A stretch of 64,000 nt of DNA. Origin: an uncultured virus (IMG/VR IMGVR_UViG_2510065032_000001). Its lineage: Duplodnaviria; Heunggongvirae; Uroviricota; Caudoviricetes. The notes under the pieces are model-generated. The model was given only the letters and a program-made list of their open reading frames with translations, did no database searches and had not been told where the DNA came from. The position numbers and the translations under genes are program-made. Positions 1 through 20,669 of the stretch are shown here, one piece after another. Numbering within the stretch: position 1 is the first letter of the stretch; each line of letters starts with the position of its first letter. The stretch lies in IMG/VR virus record IMGVR_UViG_2510065032_000001. One strand, 5' to 3'.

Positions 1-3000
1 GCCCCCGTCGGGCCCGAGCAGGCCGCCGAGTCCGTGGCCGAGGCCGCGCGGGAGGCCAAGGGCGACCTCGAGGCCGCCCGCCGCTTCCGCAAGCTGGCCG
101 AGGGCCTGGACGCGCGGATCAAGGAGCTGGAGCGGCGGCCCTACGAGGGCATGAACCTCACCTACCGCCGCGCCCAGGCCCAGGCCGCGCGCGCCGCCGA
201 AGCCGAGCGCGCCCGCCAGTTCCAGGCCCTGCTCTACCGGCTGGGGGAGCTGGCCGAGGCCGGGGAGCTGCCCCACAGCCTTCGGGGGGTCACCGCCGCC
301 AACCAGCTCGACCCCCTGCTGCTGGCGATCCGCCGCCGGGAGTACGAGCGCGAGCAGCGCCAGCCCGAGAAGCCCTACGCGGCCCACTTCCCCTGGCCCT
401 ACCTCCACCCCACCCGCACCCGCGAGGCCCTGCGGCTGGCCGAGAGGCTGAAGGGCACCCGCAGCCTCATCGCCAAGCTCAAGCCCTACGCCGACCACGA
501 GGGCCACCTGCGCGACGGGGCGGCGATAGCGGCCATGTGGGAGCTGGGCGGGATGATCCACGCCCACAAGGGCTTCACGCCCTACGAGCGCAGCGAGGGC
601 AAGTACCTGCGGGAGGCCGCCGCGGACTACCTGCGGCTGGAGCGGGCCGGGATCACCACCCCCGAGGGCTTCGCCCGAGCGGTGGGCGACCTCGAGGCCG
701 TGCTCAAGAGCGCCAGCCCCGGCGCCCACGACCCCACCGCCAAGAAGGTCAGGGAGGTCGAGCTGTCGCTCGTGGGGCGGAAGATCCCCGGCTACTTCCC
801 CACCCCCGCGGCCCTGGCCGAGCGCATCGCGGAGATGGCCGACATCCAGGACGGGATGCGGGTGCTCGAGCCCAGCGCGGGCAAGGGCAACCTGATCGAG
901 GCCGTGCAGCGGGTCGCGCCCGGCGCCCGGGTGGACGCGCTGGAGTACAACGCCACCCTCAACGACCTGCTCAAGCTCAAGGGCCACAACGTGGTGGGCC
1001 ACGACTTCCTGGCCTACGACCCCGGCGAGGTCTACGACCGCATCGTGATGAACCCGCCCTTCGAGGACGGCCAGGACGTCCGGCACGTGCGCCACGCCTA
1101 CAACCTGCTCAGGCCTGGCGGGCGCCTGGTCGCCATCACCAGCGCCGCCCACGGCTTCCGCTCCGACCGCCAGCACCGGGAGTTCCGGGAGTGGCTCGAG
1201 CTGGTGGGCGGCAGCTCGGAGCCCCTGCCCGAGGGGTCGTTCCTCCAGAGCGACAACTCGACGGGGGTCTCCACCCGCGTGGTGGTGGTGGACAAGCCCG
1301 CGCCCCAGGTGGGCGACGTGAAGGTGGAGGGGGGCGTGACCTACCGCCTCAACGAGAACCACCGCTGGGAGCGGGTGGAGGAGCCCCAGCCCCAGCCTGA
1401 GCCCCAGCCTGAGCCCGCCCCTGAGCCCCCCGCCCCCCAGCCCGAGCCCCAGGGCGCGCAGCCCTGGACCCAACACCGGGCCAAGCCGGGCGGCGAGGTG
1501 GGCCCCAACGAGGCGCGGGCCCTGGGCGAGCAGGTGGGGGTCCAGCCGGAGGGCGAGCCCCGGCCCGACCCCGACCCCGAGGCGGCCTACCGCCACGAGG
1601 TCTACCAGGCGGCGCGCCGGGCGCTCGAGGCGGGCCGGGCGCTGGGGGTGCGGACCCACCTCCGGTACTGGCCCCTCGAGCGGCCCGAGCAACTGGCCTA
1701 CAAGGACGGCCACCTGTACCTCTTCGACCGGGGCAAGCCCGTGGCCGTGACGGGCCTGACCCTCGACGACCTGGCCGCGCAGGTGGGGGTTGCCCGCCCC
1801 GGCGGGGTCGGGGTCCGGGAAAGCCAGGCCGAGCTCGACCGGGCGGCTCAGGCCGAGCGCGAACGGGAGGCCCAGGCGGACGCCCTCTGGCAGGAGTTCG
1901 TTCGCCGCCATTTTGACGGGGACGAGGACGCCGCCTACGCCGCCTACGAGGAGAACAACCGCAGGCGGGCTATGGCCGATCAGGAAGCGCTCAGCCTGGA
2001 GGAGTACGTGCGGTCCCAGGCCCAGCCCACGCCCCAGCCCACGCCCCAGCCCCAGACCCGCAGGGTGGGCACCCACGAGGGCGTGATCGAGCGCGACGGC
2101 TACCTCATCGCCCCAGGCCGCTTCGCCGCCACGGGCAAGTGGGCGGTGATCGGGGAGGACGGCGGCGTGCAGAGCGCCTGGAGCGACAGCCCCGAGCAGG
2201 CCATTCGGAGCCATCTGGAGTGGCAGGCCAAGGGTGAGGCGACCCGCCAGCTCCGTGAGGGCTACGAGCGGGCCCTCGAGGCCGCCCGGCGGGGCGACAC
2301 CGGCGAGGCGACCCTCGCCGCCCTGGGCGCGCGCCGGGGGGCCTTCACCCGCACCCAGGCCCGCCAGCTCGCCCGCGAGCTGGGCTTCAAGGGCAAGGAG
2401 GTGGACGCCCTGGTCAACTCCAACGCCGTCGGCGTGCGGGGCCACACCGCGATGGGCGCCGAGCTGATGGACGCCCGGCAGTTCCTCGAGGAGGCCCACC
2501 GCCGCCTGCAAAAGCGCGCCGACCCCGGCCTGCTGGAGCTGCAACGCCTGGTGTTCGGGCCCGGCGTGAAGCCCATCCCCCTCGAGCCCGCCCCCGCCCC
2601 CGGCCCCGAGGAGGCCCGCCAGACGGTCCTCGACATCGCGCGCGACGAGCCCCACGGCGAGCGGATGGTGGCCGACTTCCGCTACCTCCCCAACAACCCC
2701 AAGCACGCGCTGTGGTACTACGTGCGCCGGGGGCAGGGCGAGGCGAGGATGGCGGCGGCCTGGGACCATTACCAGAACCTCGTGGGGCTGGCGCGCCAGG
2801 CAGCCGACCGGATGCGCCGCGCCCGCAGCGAGGCCGCCCGCGAGGAGGCCCGCGAGGAGGCCCAGCGCCACCTGTTCGAGGCCAAGCGGCGCCTGGAGGA
2901 GTGGGAGACCCTGCGCGCGATGCAGACGGCCCACCGGCACGGCCTGACCAACCCCGCCCTCGAGGTCGCCCCCGAGAAGGAGCGGGCCGCGCAGCGGCTG

Positions 3001-3702
3001 GCCGAGGCCGCCAGGGGCGAGCTCGAGGGCCTGCTGCCGCGCCTACAGCCCCACCTCGAGCGCATCCTGGGCCGGATGTTCGGCGCGCGCTGGCTGGCCG
3101 AGGGCGGGCCCCAGACCTCGGGGGTCATCCCCGCCTTCTTCCACGCCGTCGAGAACCACCCCGCGCTCAATCTCCCCGCCGCACGGGAGGCGCTGGCGAA
3201 CCCGCTGCGCCTGGTGCGCGAGCAGGCCGAGCGGGTGCTCGAGGGCTGGCGCGCGGGGGACGCCTACGCGGTGATCGACGGGCTGCGCGCCCTGCACTCC
3301 ATGTCGGGCCGCGGCAGCGCCACCTTCTTGCTGAGCGGCCTGAACGACACCCGCTACCGCCGGGCGTTCGCGGAGCTGTTGCGGGAGTACCTGGACCAGG
3401 GCCTGGCCGCCGAGATCGACCGGATGCTGGCCGAGGCGGGCCCCGAGGCCGTCAACGCCGCCTACGACGCCGCGCGCCGCTGGGCCTTCCACAGCGGCAG
3501 GCTCTACGACCCCCCCGGCCTGGCCCGCGCCTTCGCGCTGGCGGACCCCCAAAGCCTCAAGCGCTACGTCACCCCGCGCCGCTTCGAGCGCGTCGGGCAG
3601 GCGTTCGTGGTCAAGTCCCAGGCCCTGGTGCTCCGCTCCAAGACCTTCGCCAAGGCCCCGCGCCAGGCCCTGCGCCTGCTGCGCCAGGGGGGTGGGCGAT
3701 GA
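1..3702 (+). CDS. Large polyvalent protein with adenine DNA methyltransferase domain (DarB-like MTase); 5'-truncated
   Basis: Motifs YFPTP, VLEPSAGKGN, IVMNPPF; frame is open back to base 1; Pro-Glu/Gln linkers; C-terminal FAKA motif. Confidence 0.8.
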   Translation, partial: APVGPEQAAESVAEAAREAKGDLEAARRFRKLAEGLDARIKELERRPYEGMNLTYRRAQAQAARAAEAERARQFQALLYRLGELAEAGELPHSLRGVTAANQLDPLLLAIRRREYEREQRQPEKPYAAHFPWPYLHPTRTREALRLAERLKGTRSLIAKLKPYADHEGHLRDGAAIAAMWELGGMIHAHKGFTPYERSEGKYLREAAADYLRLERAGITTPEGFARAVGDLEAVLKSASPGAHDPTAKKVREVELSLVGRKIPGYFPTPAALAERIAEMADIQDGMRVLEPSAGKGNLIEAVQRVAPGARVDALEYNATLNDLLKLKGHNVVGHDFLAYDPGEVYDRIVMNPPFEDGQDVRHVRHAYNLLRPGGRLVAITSAAHGFRSDRQHREFREWLELVGGSSEPLPEGSFLQSDNSTGVSTRVVVVDKPAPQVGDVKVEGGVTYRLNENHRWERVEEPQPQPEPQPEPAPEPPAPQPEPQGAQPWTQHRAKPGGEVGPNEARALGEQVGVQPEGEPRPDPDPEAAYRHEVYQAARRALEAGRALGVRTHLRYWPLERPEQLAYKDGHLYLFDRGKPVAVTGLTLDDLAAQVGVARPGGVGVRESQAELDRAAQAEREREAQADALWQEFVRRHFDGDEDAAYAAYEENNRRRAMADQEALSLEEYVRSQAQPTPQPTPQPQTRRVGTHEGVIERDGYLIAPGRFAATGKWAVIGEDGGVQSAWSDSPEQAIRSHLEWQAKGEATRQLREGYERALEAARRGDTGEATLAALGARRGAFTRTQARQLARELGFKGKEVDALVNSNAVGVRGHTAMGAELMDARQFLEEAHRRLQKRADPGLLELQRLVFGPGVKPIPLEPAPAPGPEEARQTVLDIARDEPHGERMVADFRYLPNNPKHALWYYVRRGQGEARMAAAWDHYQNLVGLARQAADRMRRARSEAAREEAREEAQRHLFEAKRRLEEWETLRAMQTAHRHGLTNPALEVAPEKERAAQRLAEAARGELEGLLPRLQPHLERILGRMFGARWLAEGGPQTSGVIPAFFHAVENHPALNLPAAREALANPLRLVREQAERVLEGWRAGDAYAVIDGLRALHSMSGRGSATFLLSGLNDTRYRRAFAELLREYLDQGLAAEIDRMLAEAGPEAVNAAYDAARRWAFHSGRLYDPPGLARAFALADPQSLKRYVTPRRFERVGQAFVVKSQALVLRSKTFAKAPRQALRLLRQGGGR
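1333..1392 (+). repeat. 60-bp direct repeat copy 1 (encodes GVTYRLNENHRWERVEEPQP)
   Basis: Identical to 15219-15278. Confidence 0.9.
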
Positions 3703-4802
3703 GGCTGCGGCTGGTCGTCAAGGCCCTGGGGCGGGGCAAGCCCCGCGCCCACCAGCCGGGCTACCACCCGGCCACCGACAAGCTGGGCAGGCGCTACTGG
3801 GCGCCCGCCCCCCGGCCCGCCCCNNNNNNNNNNNNNNNNNNNNNNNNNNNNNNNNNNNNNNNNNNNNNNNNNNNNNNNNNNNNNNNNNNNNNNNNNNNNN
3901 NNNNNNNNNNNNNNNNNNNNNNNCCCCCGACCGACGCCGAGCCCGAGGCGCAGACCTTCCGCCTCGACGAGCTGGTGGCGCTGCTGCGCGGCAGCCAGCC
4001 CGCCGGGGACCGGGCCGGGAGCCAGGCCGGGGACCAGGTGGCGGTGCACCGCCGGGTCACGGTGCAGGTCAGCGGCAAGGCCCAGGAGAACCTCGAGCGC
4101 ATCCTGGGCCGGGTGCCCAGCGCCCCCGAGCTGATCCGCCTGATGGGGCTCACGCCCTCCGAGCCCGCCACGCTCTACGTGGGCGCCGACGGGGACACGG
4201 TGACCTTCGCCCTCAAGGACCACCCCCACGTGCTCATCCAGGGGCGCGTGCTCTACCTCGACGGCGACGAGCCGGTGCTCGAGCACAGCCACCTCCGGCT
4301 GGACGAGGCCGCCCCCCAGGGCTACGGCTCGAGGCTCTTCGCCCGCGCGGTGGCGACGGCCCACGCCCTGGGCATCCGGCGCATCGAGACCCTGGCCCAG
4401 CGCGCCGACGACGCCGAGCCGCCCTACATCGGCTACTACGTGTGGCCGCTGCTGGGCTACGACGGCGAGCTGCCGGAGTACCTGCGCGAGCGCCTGGCCG
4501 CCGCCGGGTTCGCCAAGGGCACCCTGGGCGAGGTGATGGCCGACCCCGCGGCCAGGGAGTGGTGGAAGCGCCACGGCGCCAGCGTCCACTGCGCCTTCGA
4601 CGTGGCCGACCCCGCGCGGCGGCGCCACCTGTACCGCTACCTCGAGGCCAAGGGCTACCTCGAGGGGCTCGACCGCACCACCCAGCTCACCCTCGCCAAG
4701 GCCGCGCCGGGCCTGCGCTTCGAGGGGGCCGAGGAGCTGCCGCTTTCGGGCGACGAGCTGGCGGTCCTCGAGGCTTTGTGGGGGAGGAAACCCCGCCCCT
4801 GA
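3699..4802 (+). CDS. GNAT-like acetyltransferase (polyvalent-protein type); spans N gap
   Basis: ATGA overlap with previous stop; PQGYGSRLF...GIRRIETLA...GYYVWPLLGYD resembles GNAT motifs; N-terminal LVVKA; frame across the gap unverified. Confidence 0.6.
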   Translation: MRLRLVVKALGRGKPRAHQPGYHPATDKLGRRYWAPAPRPAXXXXXXXXXXXXXXXXXXXXXXXXXXXXXXXXXXPPTDAEPEAQTFRLDELVALLRGSQPAGDRAGSQAGDQVAVHRRVTVQVSGKAQENLERILGRVPSAPELIRLMGLTPSEPATLYVGADGDTVTFALKDHPHVLIQGRVLYLDGDEPVLEHSHLRLDEAAPQGYGSRLFARAVATAHALGIRRIETLAQRADDAEPPYIGYYVWPLLGYDGELPEYLRERLAAAGFAKGTLGEVMADPAAREWWKRHGASVHCAFDVADPARRRHLYRYLEAKGYLEGLDRTTQLTLAKAAPGLRFEGAEELPLSGDELAVLEALWGRKPRP

Positions 4803-4829: not shown

Positions 4830-7800
4830 ATGGGCCTTCGGCTCCCCCTCCACCCCCGCCTCTACCACCGCGAGGCGCTTCGCTTCGCCCGCGAGCGGCG
4901 CCTGCCCCCCGGCGACCACCTGGTCTGCGTGCGCCCCCTAGCCCCGCTGGTGGGGCTCTTCCGCAAGAGCTACTGGAAGGACGACCCCAACGTCCGCTGG
5001 ATCACCCTGCACCCCCACGGCGACGAGCACTACGTAAGGGTGCCCATCCGGGTCAACGCCGACGGCACCGCGCACGTCATCGGCGGGGGGAAGGGGCTGA
5101 GGGGGCTCAAGCTCGACCGGCTCAAGGGCCCCGAGGAGTGGGGCAAGGGCAAGAAGGCCAAGCCCAAGGACAAGCCCGAGGGCCAGGACAAGCCCAAGGG
5201 CGAGCACGACCGCCAGCTCGAGGAGAACGCCGCCCAGCTCTCCGCCGCCCTCAGCGCGCAGCTCGCTGAGCGCCGACGGCGCCAGATCGAAGCCGCCGCG
5301 CGGCTGGGGCTGGCGGGCTGGGACGACCCCACGGTGGGCAAGCTGGCCGATCCTGGGGGCGACGAGGCGACCCGGAAGGAGTACCTGGCCCGCGCCGCGC
5401 GCGCCTTGGGGATCGACCCCGCCGCCGTGGACGCGGCCCCCCTCAAGGGCGGGGCCGGGATGGTGCGCGCCGCCGACCTGCGCAAGGTGGCCTCGGGGCT
5501 CCGGCGCATCGAGGGCGGCCTGCTGCGCGAGCTGGCCCACAACCACGAGCTGCGCCAGGAGGTCATCGGGGAGCAGCCCGTCGGCGCCGAACACGCCGTG
5601 GACACCCGGCCCTCGGTGGGCCTGGGCTTCCGGCGCGCCACCCGCCGCATGGCCGAGGAGCGGGGGCTCGACCGCGCCCAGGTCAAGCGCCAGGCCCGCG
5701 AGGTGTTCAACGAGCGCGTGGCCCACCTGATGGAGTCCGACCCCGAGAAGGCCGCGCGGGTGGTCAACGCCGCCGAGACCGCGCGGGCCATGCACGACGT
5801 GGCGCGGGTGCTGCGCGAGCAGGGGGGCAGCGTGCAGGTGGACAGCGAGCTCGACCCCGCCGCCCTCAAGGAGCGGGCCGAGGCGGTCAGGGAGTTTCTG
5901 AAGGCCGCGCAGGAGGCCAAGCTCCTCGAGGCCCAGCTCCGCGAGCTCGACCCCCGGCGCCAGCGCGACCCCGAGCGGCTGGCGAAGGCCCTCAAGGCCG
6001 CCAGCGTCCCCGCCATGCGGGTGGACGCCCACGTGCTCGACGACGAGGATTTCATCGCGCAGCTCGAGGCCGACGTGGGCGAGCTCGCCAAGGCCGACCT
6101 CACCAAGCACTTCCTGGACAAGGTGGAGGCGGCGGGCGGGGAGGGGGGGATCGAGGCCGCGCGCGCCAAGATGCACGGCGCCCACGCCCACGGCGCCCAC
6201 GCCCACCTGCAAAGCGCGCTGATGGTGGCGGGGGGGATGGGCATGGACCGCATGGTGGCCGAGGTGCTGGGGCTGGAGGCCGCGGCCCAGATCGCCGCCC
6301 GCGCCATCCTCGCCGCCGCCGACCCCGAGGAGCTGGAGGCGGTGCGCGAGGGCTTGCAGCGCTACCACGACGAGGAGAGCGTGAAGCTGATCCGCGAGGC
6401 CACCGAGCGGGCGGAGCAGGCCGAGGCGGGGGCCGCCGCCATCGAGCTGCCCGACATCTCCGACGCCGCCAGCCTCGCCGCCGCCCAGGAGCTCAACGCC
6501 CTCAGGAAGGGGATGCTCGAGGAGGCCCTGCACCACCTGGGCACCGCGCTGGGCCAGCTCGAGGCCGGGGCCGCGCTCAACCTGGCCCTGCGGCAGGCCC
6601 CGCGCGGCGACCTGCGCCTGGAGTTCGGCAAGACCCCCACCGACAAGGTGCTGTGGGGCCTGGGGGCGCTGGGGCTGGAGAAGGACAAGGACTTTTCCAT
6701 CGAGCGCGACCCCGACACCAACGCGCTGGGCGTGACCCTCTCCGAGGCCGCCGTGTCGCGCCTGGTCAGCCGCCCCAGCGCGCAGGAGGCCATCCTGCAA
6801 AACCACCTCGAGGCCATCAAGCGCGGCGACCTGGACGAGGAGGACTGGCTGCCCGCGGGCTTCGTGTCCTACCCGCTCAGCCTGCACAACGACCCCGCGC
6901 GGCCCAAGCCCTTCGCCGCCCCGCCCGGCTTCGCCCAGGGCCGCCCGGTGGCCGAGGCGCTGGGGGAGTACGTGGCCTCGAGGCTGGCCGACGGCTGGAA
7001 GCCCTCCGACATCCTCGCTGAGGTCGGCAGCGTGGATTTCGTCATCCAGCACGTGCCCGAAGCCCAGCAGGAAGCCTACGCCGACGCGCTGGAGGAGCTG
7101 TTCCCCACCACCGACGCCAAGGGCGAGCTGCGCAACGTGGACGCCGACCCCGAGCTGCGCGCGCGCTTCGAGGCGATGGCGCGGGAGTACGTGGGGTCGA
7201 AGCACCCCGGCGAGGCCGACCTGCACAGCCAGAGCATCGACCCCGACGCCCAGGAGACCCGCCGCGCCGCCTTCGCCGCGCTGATGCAAGACCCCCGCAC
7301 CCAGGCGGCGTTCAAGCCCGTCGGGGAGCTGGGCGACGCCGACCAGCGGGCCCTGCGCAACTACTTCTACACCGAAATCGCCCAGGTGGACCCCAAGAGC
7401 GGCAAGGACCGGGCGGCGTATGAGGCGGCCCTGAAGGAGCTGGGCCCCGAGCCCCAGAAGATGAGCGTCAACCTCTTCGGGGACGAGGACATCAGCCCCG
7501 AGTGGGAGCAGTGGAACCGCCGCCGCCAGGAGATCGTGGAGCAGTTCGCCGGGCCGAGCGCGTGGGCCGAGTTCGTCAGCGGGATGCGGGGGCTGGACAA
7601 GGCGTACCGGGCGGTGCAGGAGCACATGCGCTCGGCCTTCGCCCAGCGCTTCCAGCGCTACCACGCCAACCTCACCGGCAAGCCCCTGCGCCTGGGGAAG
7701 CAGGCCATCCCCCTGGGGGAGCGCTTCAAGGCCGCCACCGACCCCGAGGAGCGCCGCAAGCTGCTCGAGCAGGAGCAGGCGCAGATGGCCGCCCTGCGCG

Positions 7801-9710
7801 ACCGGCGGGCCGGGAAGTTCGCCGCCGAGGGCGAGGGGGCGGTGAAGGAAAAGCTCAACCGCGCCCTCGAGATGAAGGAGAAGCTGCGCCAGGCCCAGGG
7901 CGCGCTGTTCATGGGGCTGGGGGCGCAGGGCTTCGAGGGCAAGCGGGGCATCGAGCTCAACGACCCCTTCCGGGAGCGCCTGACGCTGGGCCAGCGCGCC
8001 GAGGGGGAAATCGCCGCGATCCTGCCCTACCTCACCCACTCCACCGACCCCAACTCCCAGGGGGTGAGGCTGCGGCCGGGGCTGAGCATGGGGGCGGGGA
8101 CCAAGTTCGTGCGCCAGCAGCGGGCCATCAAGTTCGCGGTCGCCGCCAAGAAGACCTACCAGGCCCTCGGGATGGGGAGCGGCAAGACGGCCATCCAGAT
8201 CGGCACCTTCACCGAGCTGCACGCCCGCGGCAAGGCCAGGCGGGGGCTGTTCGTGGTGCCGAGCGTGGTGCGCAACCAGTTCGGGGAGGAGATGGCGCGC
8301 TTCACCGAGCCGGGGCGCTACAAGTTCCACGCCGCCGACGCCCCTTTCGAGGAGCGCCTGGCGGCCTATCGCGACCCCCACACCCACATGGTGGTCACCA
8401 CCCACCAGACCTTCCGTGACGACCTGGTGCGGCTGATGGCCGAGCACCAGGGGGTGGGGGCGGGCGAGCTCGAGGCCCGCTTCGCCGCCGCCCGCCCCCG
8501 CGAGCGCCGCCGGATGCTGCGCGAGGCCCTCGAGCACCACGGGGTGGCCGACCTGCTGGACTACCTCACCATCGACGAGGGCCACAACCTCTCCAACCGC
8601 GACGGCAAGCCCGACGCGCTGATGGCGATGGTGGCCGACGCTGCCCTGGCCGAGAGTCGGCACGCGATGATGGCCTCGGGCACCCCGGCCAAGAACGACG
8701 AGAGCGAAGTTTTCGACATCCTCAGCAAGCTCGACCCCGAGCGCTGGGGCGAGCGCAAGGAGGAGTTCAAGCGCAACTACGGGGTGTCCCTGCCCGTCGC
8801 CCAGGACGCCTTCAAGCGGGCGGCGGGGCGCTACATCTACGCCGCGAGCGTGGGCAGCGGGGTGGCGCGCCGGGAGGTGTGGGGGCGCGAGGGCGAGGGC
8901 GGGGTGCAGGCCCCCCTCGAGCTGCACCCCGAGCAGCGCAAGGCCCTCGAGCAGGTCAACCAAGCCTACCAGAGGGCCCGCGCCGCCCAGCGCACGGGCG
9001 GGGTGGACGTGGAGGCCCTGCGCACCCTCTCCCCCTCCTCCTTCGCGGGCAAGCCCCCTGAGGAGCACGAGGCCATCGCGCGCAAGCTCCAGCAGAACCT
9101 GGGCACGCTGCGCTTCGCCGCCCAGAGCCGCGTCATCGACGCCGCCCCCGCCGCGCACAACGCCAAGGTCCAGCACGTGCTGGCCCTGGCCGAGGCCAAG
9201 CGCCGCGCCGGGCACCCCGGCGTGGTGTTCGCCCACTCCCTCGAGGCCGTCGAGCAGATCAGCGCCGCGCTCAAGGCCGCGGGGCACCGGGTGGAGGTGG
9301 TCACGGGCGCCGACTCCAGCGAGCAGAAAGCCGCCAAGCGCCAGAAGTTCCACCCCGACTCGGGGGAGCCCCAGGCCGACATCCTGGTGATGAGCGACGC
9401 GGGGGCGGTGGGCATGAACCTCCAGCGGGGCCGCTGGCTCGCCAACTACGACCTGCCCCTGACCCACGCCACCCACGCCCAGCGCAACGCCCGCATCGAC
9501 CGCATCGGGCAGACCCAGGACGTGGAGATACACAACCTCGTCACCGACACCAAGTTCGACCGCGACGCCGTGGCCCGCCTCCAGCGCAAGAGCCTGCTGC
9601 AACAGGTCTTCGAGGGCGACTGGGAAAACCTCGACGACAGCGGCATGGCCCGCTACATCGCCCTGGCCCGCGCCGCGCGCGCCAAGACCCCCGAGGAGCT
9701 GGCGGCGTAG
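4830..9710 (+). CDS. Large polyvalent protein with C-terminal SNF2/SF2 helicase (DarB-like helicase)
   Basis: Walker A GMGSGKT, DEGH, SGTP, SDAGAVGMNLQ, QRNARIDRIGQ; start chosen from promoter spacing. Confidence 0.85.
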   Translation: MGLRLPLHPRLYHREALRFARERRLPPGDHLVCVRPLAPLVGLFRKSYWKDDPNVRWITLHPHGDEHYVRVPIRVNADGTAHVIGGGKGLRGLKLDRLKGPEEWGKGKKAKPKDKPEGQDKPKGEHDRQLEENAAQLSAALSAQLAERRRRQIEAAARLGLAGWDDPTVGKLADPGGDEATRKEYLARAARALGIDPAAVDAAPLKGGAGMVRAADLRKVASGLRRIEGGLLRELAHNHELRQEVIGEQPVGAEHAVDTRPSVGLGFRRATRRMAEERGLDRAQVKRQAREVFNERVAHLMESDPEKAARVVNAAETARAMHDVARVLREQGGSVQVDSELDPAALKERAEAVREFLKAAQEAKLLEAQLRELDPRRQRDPERLAKALKAASVPAMRVDAHVLDDEDFIAQLEADVGELAKADLTKHFLDKVEAAGGEGGIEAARAKMHGAHAHGAHAHLQSALMVAGGMGMDRMVAEVLGLEAAAQIAARAILAAADPEELEAVREGLQRYHDEESVKLIREATERAEQAEAGAAAIELPDISDAASLAAAQELNALRKGMLEEALHHLGTALGQLEAGAALNLALRQAPRGDLRLEFGKTPTDKVLWGLGALGLEKDKDFSIERDPDTNALGVTLSEAAVSRLVSRPSAQEAILQNHLEAIKRGDLDEEDWLPAGFVSYPLSLHNDPARPKPFAAPPGFAQGRPVAEALGEYVASRLADGWKPSDILAEVGSVDFVIQHVPEAQQEAYADALEELFPTTDAKGELRNVDADPELRARFEAMAREYVGSKHPGEADLHSQSIDPDAQETRRAAFAALMQDPRTQAAFKPVGELGDADQRALRNYFYTEIAQVDPKSGKDRAAYEAALKELGPEPQKMSVNLFGDEDISPEWEQWNRRRQEIVEQFAGPSAWAEFVSGMRGLDKAYRAVQEHMRSAFAQRFQRYHANLTGKPLRLGKQAIPLGERFKAATDPEERRKLLEQEQAQMAALRDRRAGKFAAEGEGAVKEKLNRALEMKEKLRQAQGALFMGLGAQGFEGKRGIELNDPFRERLTLGQRAEGEIAAILPYLTHSTDPNSQGVRLRPGLSMGAGTKFVRQQRAIKFAVAAKKTYQALGMGSGKTAIQIGTFTELHARGKARRGLFVVPSVVRNQFGEEMARFTEPGRYKFHAADAPFEERLAAYRDPHTHMVVTTHQTFRDDLVRLMAEHQGVGAGELEARFAAARPRERRRMLREALEHHGVADLLDYLTIDEGHNLSNRDGKPDALMAMVADAALAESRHAMMASGTPAKNDESEVFDILSKLDPERWGERKEEFKRNYGVSLPVAQDAFKRAAGRYIYAASVGSGVARREVWGREGEGGVQAPLELHPEQRKALEQVNQAYQRARAAQRTGGVDVEALRTLSPSSFAGKPPEEHEAIARKLQQNLGTLRFAAQSRVIDAAPAAHNAKVQHVLALAEAKRRAGHPGVVFAHSLEAVEQISAALKAAGHRVEVVTGADSSEQKAAKRQKFHPDSGEPQADILVMSDAGAVGMNLQRGRWLANYDLPLTHATHAQRNARIDRIGQTQDVEIHNLVTDTKFDRDAVARLQRKSLLQQVFEGDWENLDDSGMARYIALARAARAKTPEELAA

Positions 9711-11220: not shown

Positions 11221-11523
11221 ATGCCCCAAAGCACCTGGCACAAAAGCACCTGGGTCTTCCTCAGCGTCGGCGTGGAGCCCGAACACGCCGCGCGCGCGCT
11301 GGAGATCGGGCGCGCCCTCGAGCCCGCGCTCGACTGGCGGGCGTCCCTCGAGTTCTACCGCCGCCGCCAGCAGGTGGTCCAAGCCTGGCTGCCGCCCACC
11401 GAGCGCGTGGCCGAGCGCGTGGCCGAGCACGCCGACCTCAAGGCCCGCTACCTGGCCGCCCTCGAGCACGAGGGCATCGCCTACGCCGACGGCACGCTGC
11501 CGCTGGCCCGGAGGAGCCTATGA
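11221..11523 (+). CDS. Hypothetical protein
   Basis: SD AGGAGG; GC3-rich frame. Confidence 0.7.
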   Translation: MPQSTWHKSTWVFLSVGVEPEHAARALEIGRALEPALDWRASLEFYRRRQQVVQAWLPPTERVAERVAEHADLKARYLAALEHEGIAYADGTLPLARRSL

Positions 11524-12143: not shown

Positions 12144-12173
12144 CGCCCCCCGAACCCCGGAAAAGGAGACGCC

Positions 12174-12407
12174 ATGACCCGGATCGTGATCGAGCTCAAG
12201 AACCAGCCCAAGCGCTCCCTGACCCCCCTGGCCGGGCAGGGCCTCGAGGAGGCCCTGCTCGCCTACGCCCCCCAGCTCCGGGGCCTCGAGCCCACCCAGG
12301 TGCTCGTGCAGGAGTACGACCCCGGCCTCCCCACCCGCTTCCGCTACACCCCCGCCCCTCACCTGCTCGAGCGGCTGGCGCGCGCGCTGGAGGATGCCCA
12401 TGCCTAG
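12174..12407 (+). CDS. Hypothetical protein
   Basis: SD AAGGAG. Confidence 0.65.
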   Translation: MTRIVIELKNQPKRSLTPLAGQGLEEALLAYAPQLRGLEPTQVLVQEYDPGLPTRFRYTPAPHLLERLARALEDAHA

Positions 12408-12846
12408 ACGGTCCACCGTGTGGGTGTGGCCCTCCGAGGCCGTCGAGCGCTTCCTGGCCGAGCGCACCGGCGCGGGCAAGCCGGGCCACGCCGCCCGCGA
12501 GGGGCTGGAGTGGTACGCCGCGCTGCTCGAGCGCGCCCGCTTCGGGCTGTGGATGCGCTTCAGCGCCCCCGAGCTGGGCTGGCTCCAGGCCACCGCCCGC
12601 CACCTGGCCCTCGAGCCGCGCGCCCTGTCGGGCGCCGTGCTCGCCGCGCAGCTTCTGGAGGCCGAGGCCACGTTGGGCTGGGGCCGGACGTACCGGGTCG
12701 ATCCCGAGGCGGTGGCCGGGCAGCTGCGCGGGCTGGAGCTGGCCGAGGTCTTCGCCCTGGTGGACGCCCTGCGCCGCCACTGGCTCGACCCCGGCCCCGA
12801 CCGCGAGGCCGACACCTGGCGGCAGCTCGGCCTCGAGCCCCGCTAG
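12400..12846 (+). CDS. Hypothetical protein, possible ribbon-helix-helix DNA-binding N-terminus
   Basis: N-terminal RRSTVWVW strand followed by helices. Confidence 0.5.
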   Translation: MPRRSTVWVWPSEAVERFLAERTGAGKPGHAAREGLEWYAALLERARFGLWMRFSAPELGWLQATARHLALEPRALSGAVLAAQLLEAEATLGWGRTYRVDPEAVAGQLRGLELAEVFALVDALRRHWLDPGPDREADTWRQLGLEPR

Positions 12847-12921: not shown

Positions 12922-13908
12922 ATGAGCCTGATCGGTCTACCCAGCCACGTGTCCAAGCTCGCCATCCCCCTGGACGCCCTCGCCAAGGGGGTGGTGGGCC
13001 CCACCGGGCAGCGCCTGGTGTATTTCGAGACCTCGCGGGAGGGCGTCACCGACCGCGAGGGCGAGGACATCGCCGCCGACGCCCTGTGGGACAGCCGCGA
13101 GCTGTTCTTGCGGCAGGGCAACCTCGACCTCAACCACTGGAGCTGGTTGGGGAACCCGCCGGGCAGCGGGATGCGCCCGGAGTACGTCATCGGCCAGCCC
13201 CTCGACGTGGCGCGGGAGGGCGGCTCGATCTTCGTGCTGGGGGAAATCGCCCAGAAAGCCCCGCCCCCGCCCGCCGAGGCGGTGCCGGGGATGCCCGCGG
13301 GCTCGAGCTGGGCCGACTGGTTCTGGCACACCGTCAGCGTGCAGAACCCGCCCATGCGCTGGTTCCCCAGCGTCTTCGGCAACATCGCCCCCCACGCCAC
13401 CGTCGAGGTCGAGCTGCGGGACGGGCGCAGCGTGCGGCTCATCAAAGGCCCCCTGGAGTGGTTCAGCGTGGGCTTCGCCCAGCGCGCGCAGCACCCCGAG
13501 CTGCCCGCGGTGTCCACGACCCCGTTGGGGGCCTTCGCCATGAGCGCGGACCGCCCCACGCTGGTGCCGGGGGTGCCGGAGGTGGCGGTGCTGCCCTACG
13601 CCGCCTTCGCCAAGGCGGTGCAGGGCGCCCAGGCGGTGATGGCCGGGTACGGCCTGGAGGGTAAGGCCGGGCTGAGCGGGGTGGGCGCGGTGCGCCGGGA
13701 AAGCCTCGAGGGGCGCTACGAGCGCCACAAGCGCCGGGTGCTGGGCAAGCTGCTGCGCCGGGAGATCGACGGCAGCCTCGAGGGGGTGGCCGACGCCTTC
13801 ATGAAGTGCGGCTTCTCCAAGGGCGAGGCCCGCCACTGCGCCATCCGGCTGGGCCAGGAGCTCGATACCCTGGTCAACTCCAGGCGCCGCGGGGGGGTGG
13901 ACCTGTGA
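12922..13908 (+). CDS. Prohead (head maturation) protease
   Basis: S..(G)..DREGE.I, NLDLNH, IGQP, WFPSVFG pattern; upstream of scaffold and capsid. Confidence 0.7.
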   Translation: MSLIGLPSHVSKLAIPLDALAKGVVGPTGQRLVYFETSREGVTDREGEDIAADALWDSRELFLRQGNLDLNHWSWLGNPPGSGMRPEYVIGQPLDVAREGGSIFVLGEIAQKAPPPPAEAVPGMPAGSSWADWFWHTVSVQNPPMRWFPSVFGNIAPHATVEVELRDGRSVRLIKGPLEWFSVGFAQRAQHPELPAVSTTPLGAFAMSADRPTLVPGVPEVAVLPYAAFAKAVQGAQAVMAGYGLEGKAGLSGVGAVRRESLEGRYERHKRRVLGKLLRREIDGSLEGVADAFMKCGFSKGEARHCAIRLGQELDTLVNSRRRGGVDL

Positions 13909-16900
13909 AGGCCCTGCTCAGGCTCTCCGGGCACGCCCTCGAGCGCTTCGCCAAGGCCCGCGCGGGGCTGGTGCCCCACCGCCGCGCGGTGAACCGCGGG
14001 GGGAAGACCCACATCCAGACCTTCTGGGTCAACCCCCTCATCAGCGAGCACAAGCACGTGCCCGAGCGCTTCCGCGGCGAGCTGCTGGCCCTGGCGAAGC
14101 GCCTGCGCGCGGGGTTCATGCTCGAGGACGCGAACCGGGCCATCGAGCGCTACAACAAGCAGCACCGCACCCGGCTCGAGCCCATCAGCGAGGCCGAGTG
14201 GAGGCGAGCCGGGGGCTACGTGATGCCCGCCAGCCTCAAGGAGCGGCTGGCCGGGGGCAAGGCCGGGCCGCAGGGCGCGCAGGCCGAGCAGGCCGAGCAG
14301 GGCAACCTCTTCGACTTCGACTACTCCACGCCCGAGCCCGAACAGGGGGGGCTGTTCGGGCCCCAGCCTGAGCCTGAGCCCACCCCTGAGCCCCCCGCCC
14401 CGCAGCCCGAGCCTGCCCCTAAGCCCCAGCCTGAGCCTGAGCCCGAGGCCCGCAGCCTCGAGGAGCTGGAGAACCCCCCGCCGGGGGGCGTGGTGGTCCA
14501 CCGCGGCGAGCACACGACCCCGCTGGGGGCCAAGATCACCACCGTCTCCCGCCTGGTGCGCCCCGAGGAGGTGCCCGAGGAGCACCGCGCCAGCGGCTAC
14601 TACCCGCTATACGTCCGACGTCAGCACGTCAAGGTTCACCCGGCCATGCCCGAGGCCGAGCCCCAGCGCTGGGAGGAGTACGTGGAGGCCCGCTCGCCGC
14701 TGGCCGCCCTAGAGGACGCCCCCAACGGGCGCACCAGCGGCCAAGACCCCCTCGAGGGCTACACCGGCCACGCCCTCGAGGTCATGCGCCGGTGGGACGC
14801 GCTGACGCGCTGGGCAGACGCCGCCGCCCAGGAGAGCCACGCCGCCGCCGCCGCCCTCACCCGCCTGCGTGAGGCGGGCAACGAGGAGCTTCAGGCCGCC
14901 AACGAGCGCTACAACAAGAGGCTCAAGGCCCTCTTCCGCAAGGACCAGGAGCCCGACGAGGCCAAGCTCGAGGCCGCCCGCCGCGAGCGCGACGAGGAGA
15001 CGGGCCGGATCATGGCGCTCTACAAGCCCTCCGTCGAGCAGGCCCGCGAGGCGGCCCATCGCCTGGCGCTGCGCGCCCAGGCCGCGTCCGACCGCCTGCG
15101 GGACATCCGCCTGGGCAAAAGGCCGCTCGAGGACGTGGGCGACTTCGTGGAAGCCGTGGTGGAGCAGGCCGGAGAGAAGCCCGTCGGCCCGCGGGTGGGC
15201 GACCGCAAGACCGTCAACGGCGTGACCTACCGCCTCAACGAGAACCACCGCTGGGAGCGGGTGGAGGAGCCCCAGCCCGAGTCCCCCGCCCCTGACCCCG
15301 AGTCCCCCGCCCCTGACCCCGAGCCCCCCGCCCCGCCAGCCCGAGCCCGCCCCCGCCAGCGCCGAGGGGGTGAAGCCCGCACCCCGGACCCCGCCCCAGC
15401 CCGAGTACCGCGACGTGGGCGAGAAGATCGGCATGGCCCGCAAGGACATCGCCGCGCTGCGGGCCGAGCTCGACCGCGAGGCGCGCCGCGCGCTCACCGC
15501 GGGCGACCTGGAGGGGCTCGAGCGCGAGCCGGGCCTGGCCGCACGCTACGTGACCCGCGACCGGCAACTGGGCAAGGCTGCCGACCTTGCCCAGGACATG
15601 AAGGACATAGGGGCCAGCCCTGGGGCGGCCTACCTCGCCACCCGCCTGCTGTCCAGCGTCGCCCCCAAGCCCGACGACACCCCCGCCGCCCGCGCGCGCT
15701 ACGTGCGCGCCGCGCGGATGCTGCGCGAGGCGATGCTGAGATGGCAGAACCCCCAGGACGCGCTGCGGGGCATCAAGGAGCTGCAAGAGATCGGGCGCGG
15801 CTACTCCTACACCGCCGAGGAGCTGGCCGAGCTCCAGCGGCTCAAGGCCCAGCGCGACGAGATCAACCGCGAGCGGGCCCGGCGCCTGAACGAGCTGCCG
15901 CGCACCACGCCCTACGCCGAATACGTCCGGGCCGCCAGCAGCCTCGACGCCGAGCTCGCCCCCCGCTTACAGCCGATCCTGGACGCCATCTACGCCCTCG
16001 AGCGGCAGGCCGTCACCCGCAACGAGGCCGACCCCGACAGCCCCCGCAACCTCCTCGCCGCGCTGGGCGAGAAGTTCCTCGAGGCCATCGGGGTGCGCTA
16101 CAAGAAGGGCTGGGCCGACCGCTGGGAGGAGGCCGCGAAGAAGGCCGCCGCCTTCGACCAGGCGGGCGACTGGGGCTTTGCCCTCAAGGCCGCCCCCGCC
16201 GGGGGCGAGGGCCAGCCCCAGGCCGCGGCCCGGCGCCGCCGCATCCCGCCCTTCGAGCGCCGGGGGGAGGACGTGCGCAAAGGCCACGAGGTGCGGTTCA
16301 ACTCCGAGGAGCTGCACCGGACCTTCAACCTGCGGGGGGTGGAGTACGGCAACTGGATGAGCCAGGAGGACGCCGCCCTGCACACCCAGAAGGCGGGGGA
16401 GGCGCTGTACGACCTCGCCCGCCTCCTGCACATCCCCATCGAGCAGGTGTCGTGGAACGGGCGCCTGGCCCTTGGCTTCGGCGCGCGCGGCAAGGGCGCC
16501 GTGGCCCACTACGAGCCCGTGCGCAAGGTCATCAACCTTACAAAGTACGCCGGGGGCGGCAGCCTGGCCCACGAGTGGGGCCACTTCCTCGACAACGTGA
16601 TGGCGATGCTCTCCACCGGCGGCCAGAGCCACCACACCTCCTACGTCTCGGACAACGGCTGGTCGCCCCCCGGCGACGGCCTGCCCCCCGAGGTGGCCGC
16701 CGCCTGGGAGGAGCTGGGCCGGGCCATCAACCAGGGCAGCTACCGCAAGGCCAAGACCGCCCGGCCCGCCACCCACTACTACCGCGCCGATAAGCGCCGC
16801 CTAGACAGCGGGGAGAGCCTCGAGGCCCTCATCCGGGAGAAGGTGGACGAGGCCGCCAAGCGGCTGAAGGAGATCGAGGAGCGGGGGGGCAGCTACGCGG

Positions 16901-17376
16901 GGATGGGCGCCAAAGCGGTGCTGGACAACCTCGACCGCGACATGCGCTACCTGGCCGCCGCCGCCGGGCGCCCCATCCGCTACACCCCGCCCGGCGGCGA
17001 GGGCATGAGCCACTTCCGGGCCACCGCCAAGTTGATGGGCGATTACTGGTCCCGCCCCCACGAGCTGTTCGCCCGCGCGTTCGAGGCGTGGGTGCACGAC
17101 CGGCTGGCGGAGCGCGGCTGGGTGAACACCTACCTGGTCAAGGGCGTGGACGAGGAGGCGGTGCGGCGCTGGGGGAGGGAGGCGGGCCTGCTGGAGGAGG
17201 AGGGCGGCGTGACCTCGCTCTACCCGCTGGGCGAGGAGCGCAAGCGCACCAACGCGGCCTTCGACCGCCTGCTCTACGCCCTCGCGGGCAGCGGGGCCCT
17301 GGCTAAGGCCCTGGGGCTCTGGGGCTCCGGGGCTCCGGGGCGCGCGGCCTCTGACCCCCCGGCGCCCACAGCATGA
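13905..17376 (+). CDS. Large polyvalent protein (LPD5/LPD1-type, HExxH); apparent single-base frameshift near 15336
   Basis: GTG overlap; coding frame moves to the 15370..17376 frame inside a Pro-rich linker; DVGEKIGMARKD, GVEYGNW, AHYEP...INLTK...SLAHEWGH, YWSRPHELFARAFE, YPLGEER. Confidence 0.75.
15219..15278 (+). repeat. 60-bp direct repeat copy 2
   Basis: Identical to 1333-1392. Confidence 0.9.
17352..17374 (+). promoter_or_regulatory. Putative late promoter (leaderless)
   Basis: TGACCC-N11-CAGCAT, ATG 6 nt later. Confidence 0.78.
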
Positions 17377-17380: not shown

Positions 17381-18370
17381 ATGCCCCGCCTGACCCTGCG
17401 CCTCGCCAAGGCCCACCAGTCCCCGCTGTTCCCCGAGCCCCACGTGGTGCGCAGGGGCGGCAAGGTCCACACCCAGCGCTATTGGGTGGCGCCCGAGCAG
17501 CCCGCCGCGGCCCAGGCCCGCGGGCCCCGGCCCCGCGGGGAGGAGGCCGTGCCCCGTGACCCCGACCCCCGGCTGGCCGAGCGGCCAAGCCTGATCTACC
17601 TGGCCTCCACCAGCTCCTCGTGCATCGGCCAGCCGCCCACCATCGGCATCATGACCGGGCCGGAGGTGGGCGGGCTGCGCCCGATCCAGGAGGGGCGCTG
17701 GTGGGCCAGCGACAACGGCTGCTTCACCGGGCGCTTCAACCCCGAGCGCTTCGTGCGCCACCTCGAGCGCCTCCGGCCCTACCGTGACCGCTGCCTGTTC
17801 GTCGCGGCCCCCGACGTGCCCCGCAACGCCCAGGCCACCCTCGAGCGCTACGGCGAGTGGGCCGGGCCGATCCGGGCGATGGGCTTCCCGGTGGCCTACG
17901 TCCTCCAGGACGGGGCCCAGGAGATACCCCCCTGCGACTACGTGTTCCTGGCCGGTTCGGACGCCTGGCGCTTCGGCCCCCAGGGGCGCGCCCTGATCGA
18001 GGAGGCCGCCCGCCGCGGCCTGCCGGTGCACGTGGGCCGGGTCAACTCCGGCGAGCGCACCCGCCTGAGCGCCGCCGACTTCGGGGCGACCAGCGTGGAC
18101 GGCACCTACACCGCCTTCGCCGGGGTGGAGCGGGGCCTCAGGGACATCCACCGCTTCGTGAGCCAGGGGTTGGCCGCCCGCGCCCGCGTCCCGCTCCCGC
18201 TATTCCCCACCCTCTCCGTGTCCGACACCCTGGACCTCTCCTACCCCGACGCGCAGGCGGGCCGCTGCATGTCGTGCGGCGGGGTCACCTACCGCTACGA
18301 CCAATACGGCGAGGGCTACCTCTGCCCGTTCTGCGCCGAAGAGCTTCAAGAGGAAATGGGGTGGGGATAA
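17381..18370 (+). CDS. TGT/DpdA-like TIM-barrel protein with N-terminal cargo signal and C-terminal zinc ribbon
   Basis: WASDNGCF, APDVP, VLQDG, VHVGRVNS, SVDGT; CMSC...CPFC; N-terminus LRLAKA...RRGGKVHTQRYWV. Confidence 0.5.
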   Translation: MPRLTLRLAKAHQSPLFPEPHVVRRGGKVHTQRYWVAPEQPAAAQARGPRPRGEEAVPRDPDPRLAERPSLIYLASTSSSCIGQPPTIGIMTGPEVGGLRPIQEGRWWASDNGCFTGRFNPERFVRHLERLRPYRDRCLFVAAPDVPRNAQATLERYGEWAGPIRAMGFPVAYVLQDGAQEIPPCDYVFLAGSDAWRFGPQGRALIEEAARRGLPVHVGRVNSGERTRLSAADFGATSVDGTYTAFAGVERGLRDIHRFVSQGLAARARVPLPLFPTLSVSDTLDLSYPDAQAGRCMSCGGVTYRYDQYGEGYLCPFCAEELQEEMGWG

Positions 18371-18432: not shown

Positions 18433-18455
18433 TGACCCCTCAGCCCCCTGAGCCT
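18433..18455 (+). promoter_or_regulatory. Putative late promoter (leadered, SD GAGGAGG)
   Basis: TGACCC-N11-GAGCCT. Confidence 0.78.
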
Positions 18456-18475
18456 CGAGGTGTGAGGAGGGAACT

Positions 18476-19144
18476 ATGGACCTGAAGGAAGAACAGGCGA
18501 AGCGCGGCTTCGCCGCCATCCAAAACCTCCTGGCGAAGGCGGCCCAGGGCGGCGAGCCCGACGACGCCGACGCCGAGAAGGATGACCTCGACCTCGACCT
18601 CGACTTTTCCGACCTGGACGAAGCCCAGGGCGAGGCCGACGACGGCGAAGGCCAGGGCCCCGAGGAAGAGGAAGAGGACGGGGAGGGCAAGGGCCAGCCG
18701 GTGGCGAAGGCCGCCCAGGGCCAGGGCGAGGAGATCGTGGACGCGGGCCCGATCCTGATGGAGGTCGCCCAATCCCTGCGCGACCTCAGCCAGCAGAACG
18801 CCACCCTGCGCGAGCAGAACGCCACCCTCGCCAAGGCCATGAGCTTCCAGCTCGGCGTCAACCAGCAGCTCTTGAAGCGCCTGGAGCGCCTCGAGGCCAT
18901 GTTGGGCAACACCCCCACCATCGCCAAGGCTTCCAACGTGCGGCTCAAGGGCCAGGGGCAGGCCCAGGCCCAGGGCCTGGGCCTGGACGTGGAGGGCGTC
19001 ATCGCCAAAGCCGCCGTGGACACCGCCAACTTCACCGCCTCGCAGGTGGCGCGGCTGGAAAGCCTGTTGCGCTCGGGGCGGACCGCCGAGCTCCCCCGGC
19101 ACTTCAGCGCGGGCCAGCTCGAGGCCGTGGGCATCAAGCTCTGA
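18476..19144 (+). CDS. Capsid scaffolding protein
   Basis: Acidic stretch + coiled coil, five [LVI]AKA motifs, immediately before capsid gene. Confidence 0.7.
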   Translation: MDLKEEQAKRGFAAIQNLLAKAAQGGEPDDADAEKDDLDLDLDFSDLDEAQGEADDGEGQGPEEEEEDGEGKGQPVAKAAQGQGEEIVDAGPILMEVAQSLRDLSQQNATLREQNATLAKAMSFQLGVNQQLLKRLERLEAMLGNTPTIAKASNVRLKGQGQAQAQGLGLDVEGVIAKAAVDTANFTASQVARLESLLRSGRTAELPRHFSAGQLEAVGIKL

Positions 19145-19175
19145 GGCTCCGCCGGGGCTTTGAAAGGAGAAAAGC

Positions 19176-20669
19176 ATGGAACTGCAAGGAGTGAACGCAC
19201 GTTTCGGCGGCCCCATCGGTGGGGCTAACGACCTGTTCGGCCAGGGCATCAACTCCCTGGAGGACTTCCAGCGATTCATGAAGGCGGTGCAGACCGCGGG
19301 CGACCCCCACGCGCTGGACTTCAAGGGCAACCTCGAGGGCGTGCCCGCCATCCGCCTCGAGGCCCTGGAGGGCACCCTGCGCGCGGTGGTCGAGCGCGAG
19401 CGCAACTTCACCCTCTTCAAGCGCCTGAAGAGCAAGAAGGCCAAGAGCTCGGTGGTCGAGTGGAGCACGCTGAAGAACATCGGCGGCGACGTGGGCGGCT
19501 CGTTCCACGGCGAGTATTCCGACATCCGCCAGGCCCGCAGCGAGTACGGGCGCGACGTGCTGCGCATCAAGTACCTGATGGAGGGCGCCGAGATCACGGT
19601 GGCCGCCCAGGTGCAGCAGGCCATCGACGACATCAAGGCCCGCGAGAACACCTCGGCCACCACCCGCATCCTGCGCTCGGTGGAGTGGGGGCTGTTCCAG
19701 GGCGACGAGAGCGTGGTGCCCGAGGAGTTCGACGGCATCGCCGCCACCCTGCGCCGCCTGCACCCCAACCACATCATCGACCTCGAGGGCTCCAGCGACA
19801 CCCAGGAGCTGTACGACGCCATGTACCGCGCCTACGCCGACACCATCGGCCCCGAGGGCGGCTACGGGTCCATCTCCGACGTGTACCTGACCCCCAGCGT
19901 GCAGAACGACCTCGACCTGTTCCTGGCCCCCCAGTGGCGCAAGAGCCTCGACGGGAGCAAGACCGAGTACGGCAGCCCCGTGCCGGTGATCCACACCTCC
20001 TTCGGGGACATCAAGACCAACCAGAGCGTGTGGATTCAGGAGGGCGACTACCCCCACACCTCGGCCCCCGCCGTGGTGCGCACCAAGGGCAAGCTCTCCC
20101 CCGACGCCCCCGGCGCCCCCACCGTCGCCATCTCTGCCGTGGTGGGCGCGGCTGGTTCGAAGTTCAAGGCCGGGCAGAACGGCACCTACTACTACGCGGT
20201 GGCCTCGGTCAGCGAGAAGGGCGAGGGCCCGCTGTCGGTCATCGGGTCGGTGGCCCTGGGCGTGGGCGACGCCGCCCAGCTCCAGATCACCCCGCCCGCT
20301 GGCCTGGGGCAGACCGGCTTCGTGATCTACCGCTCCAAGCGTAACCCCGCCACCGCCCCCGCCGCCGCCGACCTGCGCATGGTCAAGCGCATCCCGGCTG
20401 CCGAGAACCCCGCGGATGTCGTGACCTTCGTGGACAAGAACGAGGACATCCCCGGCGCCTCGAGCCTGTTCATCCTCGACCTCGAGGACGAAGAGGCCAT
20501 CGACTGGACCCAGCTCCTGCCGATGACCCAGTTCCCGCTGTACCCGACCCGCAAGGCCAGCTACCCCTGGGCCGTGCTGCTGTTCGGGGCGCTCAAGCTG
20601 GGCATCCCCCAGCGGCACTGGGTCGTGCGCAACTACGTGCCCAAGACCGCCCGCTGGCAGCCCTTCTAA
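19176..20669 (+). CDS. Major capsid protein (SPO1/Twort-like pattern)
   Basis: FMKA...AIRLEALEGTL, AKSSVVEW, EWGLFQGD...EFDGI, C-terminal WAVLLFGAL...P; 497 aa, strong SD. Confidence 0.88.
   Translation: MELQGVNARFGGPIGGANDLFGQGINSLEDFQRFMKAVQTAGDPHALDFKGNLEGVPAIRLEALEGTLRAVVERERNFTLFKRLKSKKAKSSVVEWSTLKNIGGDVGGSFHGEYSDIRQARSEYGRDVLRIKYLMEGAEITVAAQVQQAIDDIKARENTSATTRILRSVEWGLFQGDESVVPEEFDGIAATLRRLHPNHIIDLEGSSDTQELYDAMYRAYADTIGPEGGYGSISDVYLTPSVQNDLDLFLAPQWRKSLDGSKTEYGSPVPVIHTSFGDIKTNQSVWIQEGDYPHTSAPAVVRTKGKLSPDAPGAPTVAISAVVGAAGSKFKAGQNGTYYYAVASVSEKGEGPLSVIGSVALGVGDAAQLQITPPAGLGQTGFVIYRSKRNPATAPAAADLRMVKRIPAAENPADVVTFVDKNEDIPGASSLFILDLEDEEAIDWTQLLPMTQFPLYPTRKASYPWAVLLFGALKLGIPQRHWVVRNYVPKTARWQPF

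Follow-up and report, generated by a model that had tools for sequence, protein, structure and literature searches.

Putative lysine-type head-protease sites and portable hairpin modules on enzymes in the head-gene cluster of a plasmid-like myovirus

How do enzymes with no structural role come to be carried in a phage head? The entry of polyvalent and anti-defence proteins is largely open, and the study of phage P1, in the part available, gave no consensus signal (PMC9024508). The question is raised by the head-gene cluster of an uncultured virus (IMG/VR record IMGVR_UViG_2510065032_000001), in which structural genes and otherwise unrelated enzymes share the short motif h-x-K-[A/S/G] (h, hydrophobic). 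The cluster lies at positions 1-20669 of the window, that is, the whole 64,000-nt stretch analysed here and the first 64 kb of an 83,151-bp contig. A sequence-only reading had proposed that this motif and a shared basic hairpin address the enzymes to the capsid. Taken as a whole, loading of lysine-cut cargo into heads is in our view the best explanation, and a likely one. The head genes and candidate cargo genes described below are all on the + strand.

On direct check of the sequence, every motif quoted in that reading was found where it had been placed. The major capsid protein (19176-20669; A511/SPO1-type by PHROG and alignment) has the site at K36 (19275-19286), and the acidic scaffold (18476-19144) has five by motif scan (K21, K78, K120, K151 and K178). 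The prohead protease (12922-13908) has K22 (LAKG, 12979-12990) and K231 (13606-13617). Using our own gene calls, the motif was present within the first 45 residues of 9/17 head-cluster proteins with an intact start, 7/76 other phage proteins and 441/4039 host proteins (Fisher p 1.5e-4 versus other phage, 2.5e-5 versus host). None of 5000 residue shuffles reached nine head-cluster proteins (mean 1.9), and the strict N-terminal hhKA version gave 6/17 versus 3/76. The sequence-only reading had called for a comparison with non-head proteins, and the enrichment was borne out at N-termini. Its broader wording, near the termini, was right only in part: the scaffold sites are spread throughout, K231 of the protease lies 97 residues from the end, and the C-terminal enrichment was weak or marginal (4/17 versus 3/76, p 0.02; strict form 2/17 versus 1/76, not significant). 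Six small open reading frames (ORFs) in the span (9763, 10858, 11221, 11520, 12174 and 12394) have the site at residue 31 or later, or none. The cluster is interrupted at 11221-12846 by four small ORFs without leaders, and 12169-12389 matches host contig C3 at 78%. The portal-side genes beyond the window also carry the motif (K6 in a 2H protein, K52 and K65 in a MuF-like protein).

The h-x-K-[A/S] form is most likely a prohead-protease site, the lysine version of the T4 L/I-x-E site, since it is distributed over capsid, scaffold and protease, the protease has a gp21 fold, and a deposited capsid begins just after the aligned lysine. This agrees with the role first suggested for the motif. The protease was assigned to the T4 gp21/assemblin fold by structure model and alignment; its best Foldseek match was T4 gp21 (5jbl, E-value 6e-4), His72 and Ser150 are invariant in the family, and phrog_1028 was matched by 35/41 members. 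In the capsid family K36 is invariant, and the propeptide before it is variable. The PDB sequence 9row_B (439 amino acids, aa) is offset by 24 from 5lii_P (463 aa), its first residue being the Ser after Lys24, which aligned with K36. We take both to be staphylococcal Herelleviridae capsids. The capsid of Listeria phage A511 is reportedly cut at a Lys-Ser bond, for which no confirming paper was found; the available parts of PMC3601020 and PMC9503643 give no cleavage site. As a separate observation, the protease bears after K231 (13606-13720) a copy of the mature N-arm of the capsid. The protease family profile matched capsid 9vel_C at this copy (E-value 0.003), five of the 41 members matched the capsid PHROG, and the copy may serve protease docking in the lattice by mimicry.

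The same distribution was found in related phages. The capsid alignment retrieved 80 of 137 viral loci; 75 were analysed after dropping five short, truncated or near-duplicate ones, and the 43 with <80% capsid identity were kept for the counts. The gene caller, checked on the window and on PHB04, missed the 13905 part and set some starts too short. Within the first 45 residues, h-x-K-[A/S] was present in capsid (43/43), scaffold (43/43), protease (38/41), MuF (10/12) and helicase (15/23) proteins, as well as at the portal C-terminus (7/7), and was scarce in sheath (2/33), tube (2/28), adaptor (0/37) and neck (0/33) proteins. Rare genes had it in 20/70 cases upstream on the head strand, 10/125 downstream and 9/95 on the opposite strand. 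The scaffolds (44 members) have 4-9 sites in about 218 residues, and the helicase site lies <=25 residues from the conserved N-terminal domain in 22/23 ORFs. A hydrophobic N-terminal leader was found in 25/44 non-core upstream genes versus 1/22 chance matches downstream. C-terminal tags were rejected as a general rule, with weak figures in hairpin proteins (33/114), locus genes (23/151 versus 21/333) and hydrophobic tails (7/23 versus 4/21). In several Thermus-group relatives, tail or neck blocks are inverted into the head cluster (L032:4398-8264, L039:353-7804, L012).

The candidate cargo begins with an adenine methyltransferase (MTase)-containing polyvalent protein (1-3702; Pfam MTS/Methyltransf_23, PHROG DNA methyltransferase), which lacks its 5' end, the N-terminus falling outside the contig, and has C-terminal sites K1205 (3607-3618) and K1218 (3646-3657). 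The GNAT-like protein (3699-4802; 100 N at 3824-3923) has a hydrophobic leader, site K8 (3714-3725), hairpin C (3747-3806) and a second site K334 (4692-4703). In the SNF2 helicase (4830-9710; Pfam), K46 (4959-4970) precedes a conserved N-terminal hairpin domain (4995-5090) by ten residues. The zincin-like protein (10000-10827; HExxH at 10441-10455) has a lax site K9 (VSKG, 10018-10029) and a basic stretch (10033-10083); no homologues were found among proteins of 151-482 residues, and its membership in the cargo set is uncertain. The LPD1/CLCA_X polyvalent gene (13905-17376; Pfam) has K17 (13947-13958), hairpin B (13968-14030) and a C-terminal site, K646 of its second part (17299-17310). It appears as two ORFs (from 13905, and 15370-17376), and since the extra base at 15336 is absent from the contigs of two runs (X1 and X2) and both halves match one 1349-aa protein, it is one gene split by an assembly error.

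Grafting is seen in a TGT-like TIM-barrel enzyme (17381-18370), in which a leader of ~65 aa with site K10 (17402-17413) and hairpin B (17426-17488) precedes the enzyme. The model has a hairpin at residues 21-32 plus a TIM barrel that matched TGT (Z score 15.0, root-mean-square deviation 3.0, 203 aligned) and, tied with it, pyruvate kinase (Z score 15.6); D111, D145 and D240 are invariant, and there was no Pfam match. Of its 132 homologue matches 120 were listed, mostly of ~200 aa; among 119 listed homologues none had the hairpin and three had an early motif, which supports the claim that motif and leader were added to otherwise unrelated enzymes. The enzyme labels given before stood for MTase, SNF2 and LPD1 by Pfam and for the zincin by its HExxH, but GNAT is only a lead (an Atlas cluster with 20% PF00583) and TGT is tied for best match. 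The search for GNAT-like homologues in a near-length range gave one relative, P0252, with another leader. In this single case an R-T-A-A word stands where the window protein has its C-terminal site; perhaps the site was swapped for that of another protease. Directly after the portal, a 2H phosphoesterase (L001:18281-18805) has a leader ending at K6, as does its G119 orthologue. It is a candidate for a packaged degrader of nucleotide signals, and we take it to be Acb1-like.

The hairpins were said to be four similar ones. Those of the 13905 and 17381 genes are indeed homologous (hairpin B), but those of the GNAT-like and zincin proteins are not: a profile of 146 hairpin-B copies had no match to either at E<=1, and a single hairpin family was rejected. 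The search profile was built from six copies, with the lysine site excluded, and was run against 1.84 billion representatives. It matched 130 proteins with 146 copies, 114 of them within 60 aa of the N-terminus, and the site precedes 98 of the 146 (15 expected). Leaving out four seed-like proteins, a site stood <=40 residues before hairpin B in 71/110 N-terminal and 22/31 internal copies (background 172/1285, 13%), and <=15 residues before it in 60/110 and 19/31 (background 192/3247, 6%). The 114 carriers of >=150 aa fell into 41 cargo clusters, with site-hairpin pairing in 31. Hairpin B has a median charge of +4 and the core V-x-R-x-G-K-x-[F/H]-x-Q-T-[F/Y]-[W/Y]-V. Pfam scanning of 129 carriers gave LPD1, InPase, ART/PARP/DRAT, zeta toxin, SNF2, N6-MTase and NUDIX, further ligase, HipA-like kinase, GNAT, DdrB-ParB and 2H; most carriers had no match, and no Pfam family covered hairpin B itself. 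Hairpin B is also present on other enzymes in G169 and G119, and the cultured Thermus phages have it behind a site in Lalka8 DarB and phiMa gp19. For Lalka, the available part of a preprint hypothesises DarB and Ulx packaging, without data (10.1101/2024.08.14.607894).

Other modules occupy similar places. Hairpin A, from a proteobacterial group, follows a site in 11/11 matches, five being seeds and six not. Hairpin C of the GNAT-like protein resembles a module in fHe-Yen8-01 gp129 and Mecenats66 ORF50 (three seeds only), and the basic stretch of the zincin matched none of the hairpin modules. An internal module D of ~21 aa (1312-1374, + strand, repeated at 15198-15260) is common to the MTase and LPD proteins and occurs in G169 and PHB04 DarB; it never follows a lysine site. 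Among the listed DNA-pattern matches to hairpin B in genome contigs, all appeared to lie off-frame or in an unrelated conserved gene, presumably YidC-like, and none was used. Words of the form Q-x-x-L-F numbered 23 in 76,639 residues of hairpin carriers (P0121-P0249) versus 134 in 1.24 million host residues; 13 stand just before a hairpin, and one also occurs at residue 1026 of the window helicase. We take them to resemble a beta-clamp binding motif, and the phage encodes a beta clamp (C9 72168-73247).

These data suggest the following course of events. The gp21-fold protease would cleave h-x-K|[A/S], and in some cases K|G, on the C-terminal side of the Lys; the capsid would thereby lose its propeptide, the scaffold would be cut to pieces, and protease and portal would be trimmed. 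For these head proteins the cut is very probable. The head-cluster enzymes would have gained a short hydrophobic leader with the same site at its end, by which they could be co-assembled into the prohead and then clipped, internal sites splitting polyvalent proteins into modules. Such co-assembly, clipping and internal cutting of cargo are probable. Several kinds of small beta-hairpin, basic and aromatic, would often stand at the new N-terminus. Since hairpin B would remain on the protein after cleavage and is found also where the phage capsid is unrelated, it might act as a tether between the cargo and some general partner, probably the packaged DNA, so that the cargo is retained and co-ejected, an assignment that we make tentatively and at somewhat less than an even chance. 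As an address in the manner of T4, the leader is the stronger candidate, though not a required one, and here we stand just short of evenly divided. The payload would probably protect or modify incoming phage DNA and blunt host defence. What the sequences show is a lysine site conserved on head proteins and on grafted leaders, together with a mobile hairpin carried by many unrelated cargoes; cargo cleavage, packaging, DNA tethering and an anti-defence role are what we infer.

Several observations weigh against this reading. The motif is permissive: it is matched within the first 45 residues by 11% of host proteins, and tail families also have it (tape measure 8/20, a small tail gene 9/27). The relatives counted are not independent lineages, the 439-aa PDB capsid may have been trimmed by its depositors, and the hairpin model confidence is moderate (pLDDT ~72). 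In fHe-Yen8-01 the two genes that have leader and hairpin and lie away from the head cluster are both flagged particle-associated in the GenBank record, for which no paper was found, but these flags are liberal (52/136 genes). The motif difference there (7/52 flagged versus 0/84 unflagged) belongs to a 13-residue window chosen post hoc and is 14/52 versus 12/84 at 45 residues (p 0.08). Moreover, hairpin B lacks a site in 39/110 N-terminal and 9/31 internal copies. A DNA-pattern scan of viral contigs for hairpin B gave seven loci, six of them real. In one, with a terminase 59% identical to that of this phage, two genes have site and hairpin B together. In the other five, hairpin B stands without a site near portal and MuF-like genes, capsid and head genes, where present, belong to other families, and the motif is at background (16/134). 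In the Herelleviridae Nachito and LysYB2 hairpin B is at a bare N-terminus; the capsid, scaffold, protease and portal of Nachito all have the lysine site. Hairpin and site are thus separable: since hairpin B can stand where there is no site, even alongside an unrelated capsid, the lysine motif does not by itself make up the address. With several unrelated hairpins in use as well, the idea of one shared signal and one shared hairpin as the address had to be given up.

On a rival view the hairpin is itself the packaging signal, binding portal, MuF or another conserved head part, and the lysine motif serves maturation only. Leaderless hairpin B adjoins the portal gene in Herelleviridae; where the phage has a different capsid, it lies between the genes for the portal and a MuF-like protein, and 23 N-terminal copies have <=8 residues before them. 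However, several unrelated hairpins occupy the same slot, no hairpin is evident in certain proteins that do have the site (the 2H phosphoesterase, for example), and the address of T4 is the removed leader, so we hold this view to be rather unlikely. About equally doubtful is a bolder extension, in which hairpin B would be a capsid-independent boarding tag of ~25 residues across unrelated lineages, tying fused enzymes to packaged DNA or the portal for co-ejection, while lysine-protease lineages would add h-x-K|A before each copy to give cut-and-release polyproteins. If true, it would provide a general rule, readable from sequence, for proteins injected with the genome.

The cargo sites might also serve activation or disposal during assembly or in the lysogen, without the enzymes reaching the next host. 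By analogy with T4 gp22, scaffolds that carry these sites are broken down and not delivered; yet the cargo sites are terminal or at module joints and not spread, and the cargo types match known or proposed injected proteins such as DarB-like and ART, which leaves this quite improbable. Chance hits of a loose four-residue pattern on the non-structural neighbours are very improbable. The background of 11-13%, the lax site of the zincin and its want of homologues, and the weak C-terminal enrichment of locus genes speak for chance, but the shuffles that never reached the window count, the close site-hairpin spacing in 60/110 and 19/31 copies against 6%, the helicase position (22/23) and the pairing across 31/41 cargo clusters speak against it. 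Chance is thus largely refuted for the whole set and stays for the zincin and the single C-terminal sites. Lysine-cut cargo loading is the explanation that we retain.

The contig, a plasmid-prophage of myovirus type with a heat-loving bacterium as host, belongs to the phiMa/Lalka/PHB04 group. By our own gene calls its myovirus gene set looks complete and includes ParA, SSB, beta clamp and terminase. The genes for the portal, the 2H phosphoesterase and a truncated MuF-like protein are found at the opposite end of the contig (80521-83151), and therefore the head cluster wraps round the gap to position 1. The capsid (phrog_752) has 60% identity to those of the Thermus phages phiMa and Cumys, 44% to Lalka, ~31% to PHB04-like phages and 25% to Herelleviridae. 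A relative was present in 3/363 other genomes of the phylum, and single-protein locus searches with the capsid as query gave no matches. Outside the cluster, a 172-aa orphan (23233-23751, + strand; motif scan, no family match) with motif matches K6, K33 and K76 is a possible further head protein. It is followed by what we take from motifs to be a second DNA methyltransferase-like gene (23748-25301), and a DUF5131/gp37-gp68-like gene, labelled in the same way, lies at 58510-59436. The host (G000, contig C5, ~220500-221950) has a CRISPR array with cas genes and eight matches of 30-40 bases to the phage contig, seven at 100% and one at 97%, one spacer being duplicated. Either the phage resides in other cells or it blocks self-targeting, and the latter would hint at an anti-CRISPR.

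With a site that can be read and a module that moves between proteins, the injected payload of a large phage group would be predictable from sequence, and fused domains without label could be flagged as anti-defence candidates. Both elements are present in cultured Thermus phages, so they are testable there. A cut after lysine may have been overlooked since tryptic proteomics is blind to it. A thermostable loading tag could be of use for protein delivery into bacteria.

Among known systems, the polyvalent proteins of Iyer et al. (2017) were proposed, in the part available, to be processed by built-in zincin peptidases and loaded through MuF or portal fusion (PMC5512222). The repertoire is the same (LPD1, MTase, SNF2, ART, InPase, 2H, zeta toxin, NUDIX and GNAT near late genes), and at this locus LPD1 (E-value 9.7e-21), MTase and SNF2 were found, with the 2H phosphoesterase adjoining the portal; the cargo types are those of virion-injected polyvalent proteins, in line with the sequence-only interpretation. 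Prohead-protease sites and these hairpins, in contrast, are not described in that part of the paper. Herelleviridae have a homologous capsid with an aligned Lys followed by Ser/Ala (5lii_P versus 9row_B), but only capsid processing is indicated there, and the extension to cargo is new here. The site-plus-hairpin code was not found in the literature searched; most subscription papers and supplements lay outside that scope, so absence from print is not shown.

P1, with its Dar system, is a plasmid-like temperate myovirus as well, its DarB has an N-terminal packaging signal on anti-restriction cargo, and its capsid is cut at E120-S121 (PMC9024508, available part). DarB-like MTase-helicase fusions and Ulx-like genes occur in relatives of this phage, while in the window MTase, with its missing 5' end, and SNF2 helicase are separate genes. 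DarA, Hdf and DdrA/B were not found in Pfam/PHROG scans of 18 window proteins, no search having been aimed at them. The Dar N-termini have no consensus according to the same part of that study, whereas a consensus site and shared modules are visible here.

A close counterpart is the T4 system of IPI-III and Alt, where cleavage by gp21 falls after L/I-x-E, breaks the scaffold into fragments and takes off targeting propeptides of 10-19 residues (PMC9026906, as far as available). Both have a gp21-fold protease, one h-x-residue site on capsid, scaffold, protease and cargo, a short removable N-terminal leader, a scaffold cut many times and some C-terminal trimming, the cuts in the present phage being inferred. 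The differences are that P1 of the site (the residue before the cut) is Lys and not Glu, that the capsid is A511/SPO1-type, that the leaders share hydrophobicity only, and that the cut is followed by an exchangeable basic hairpin, which turns up again at internal joints. In conclusion, the system works like the targeting-sequence system of T4 but lacks its Glu specificity, and it is not a T4 member.

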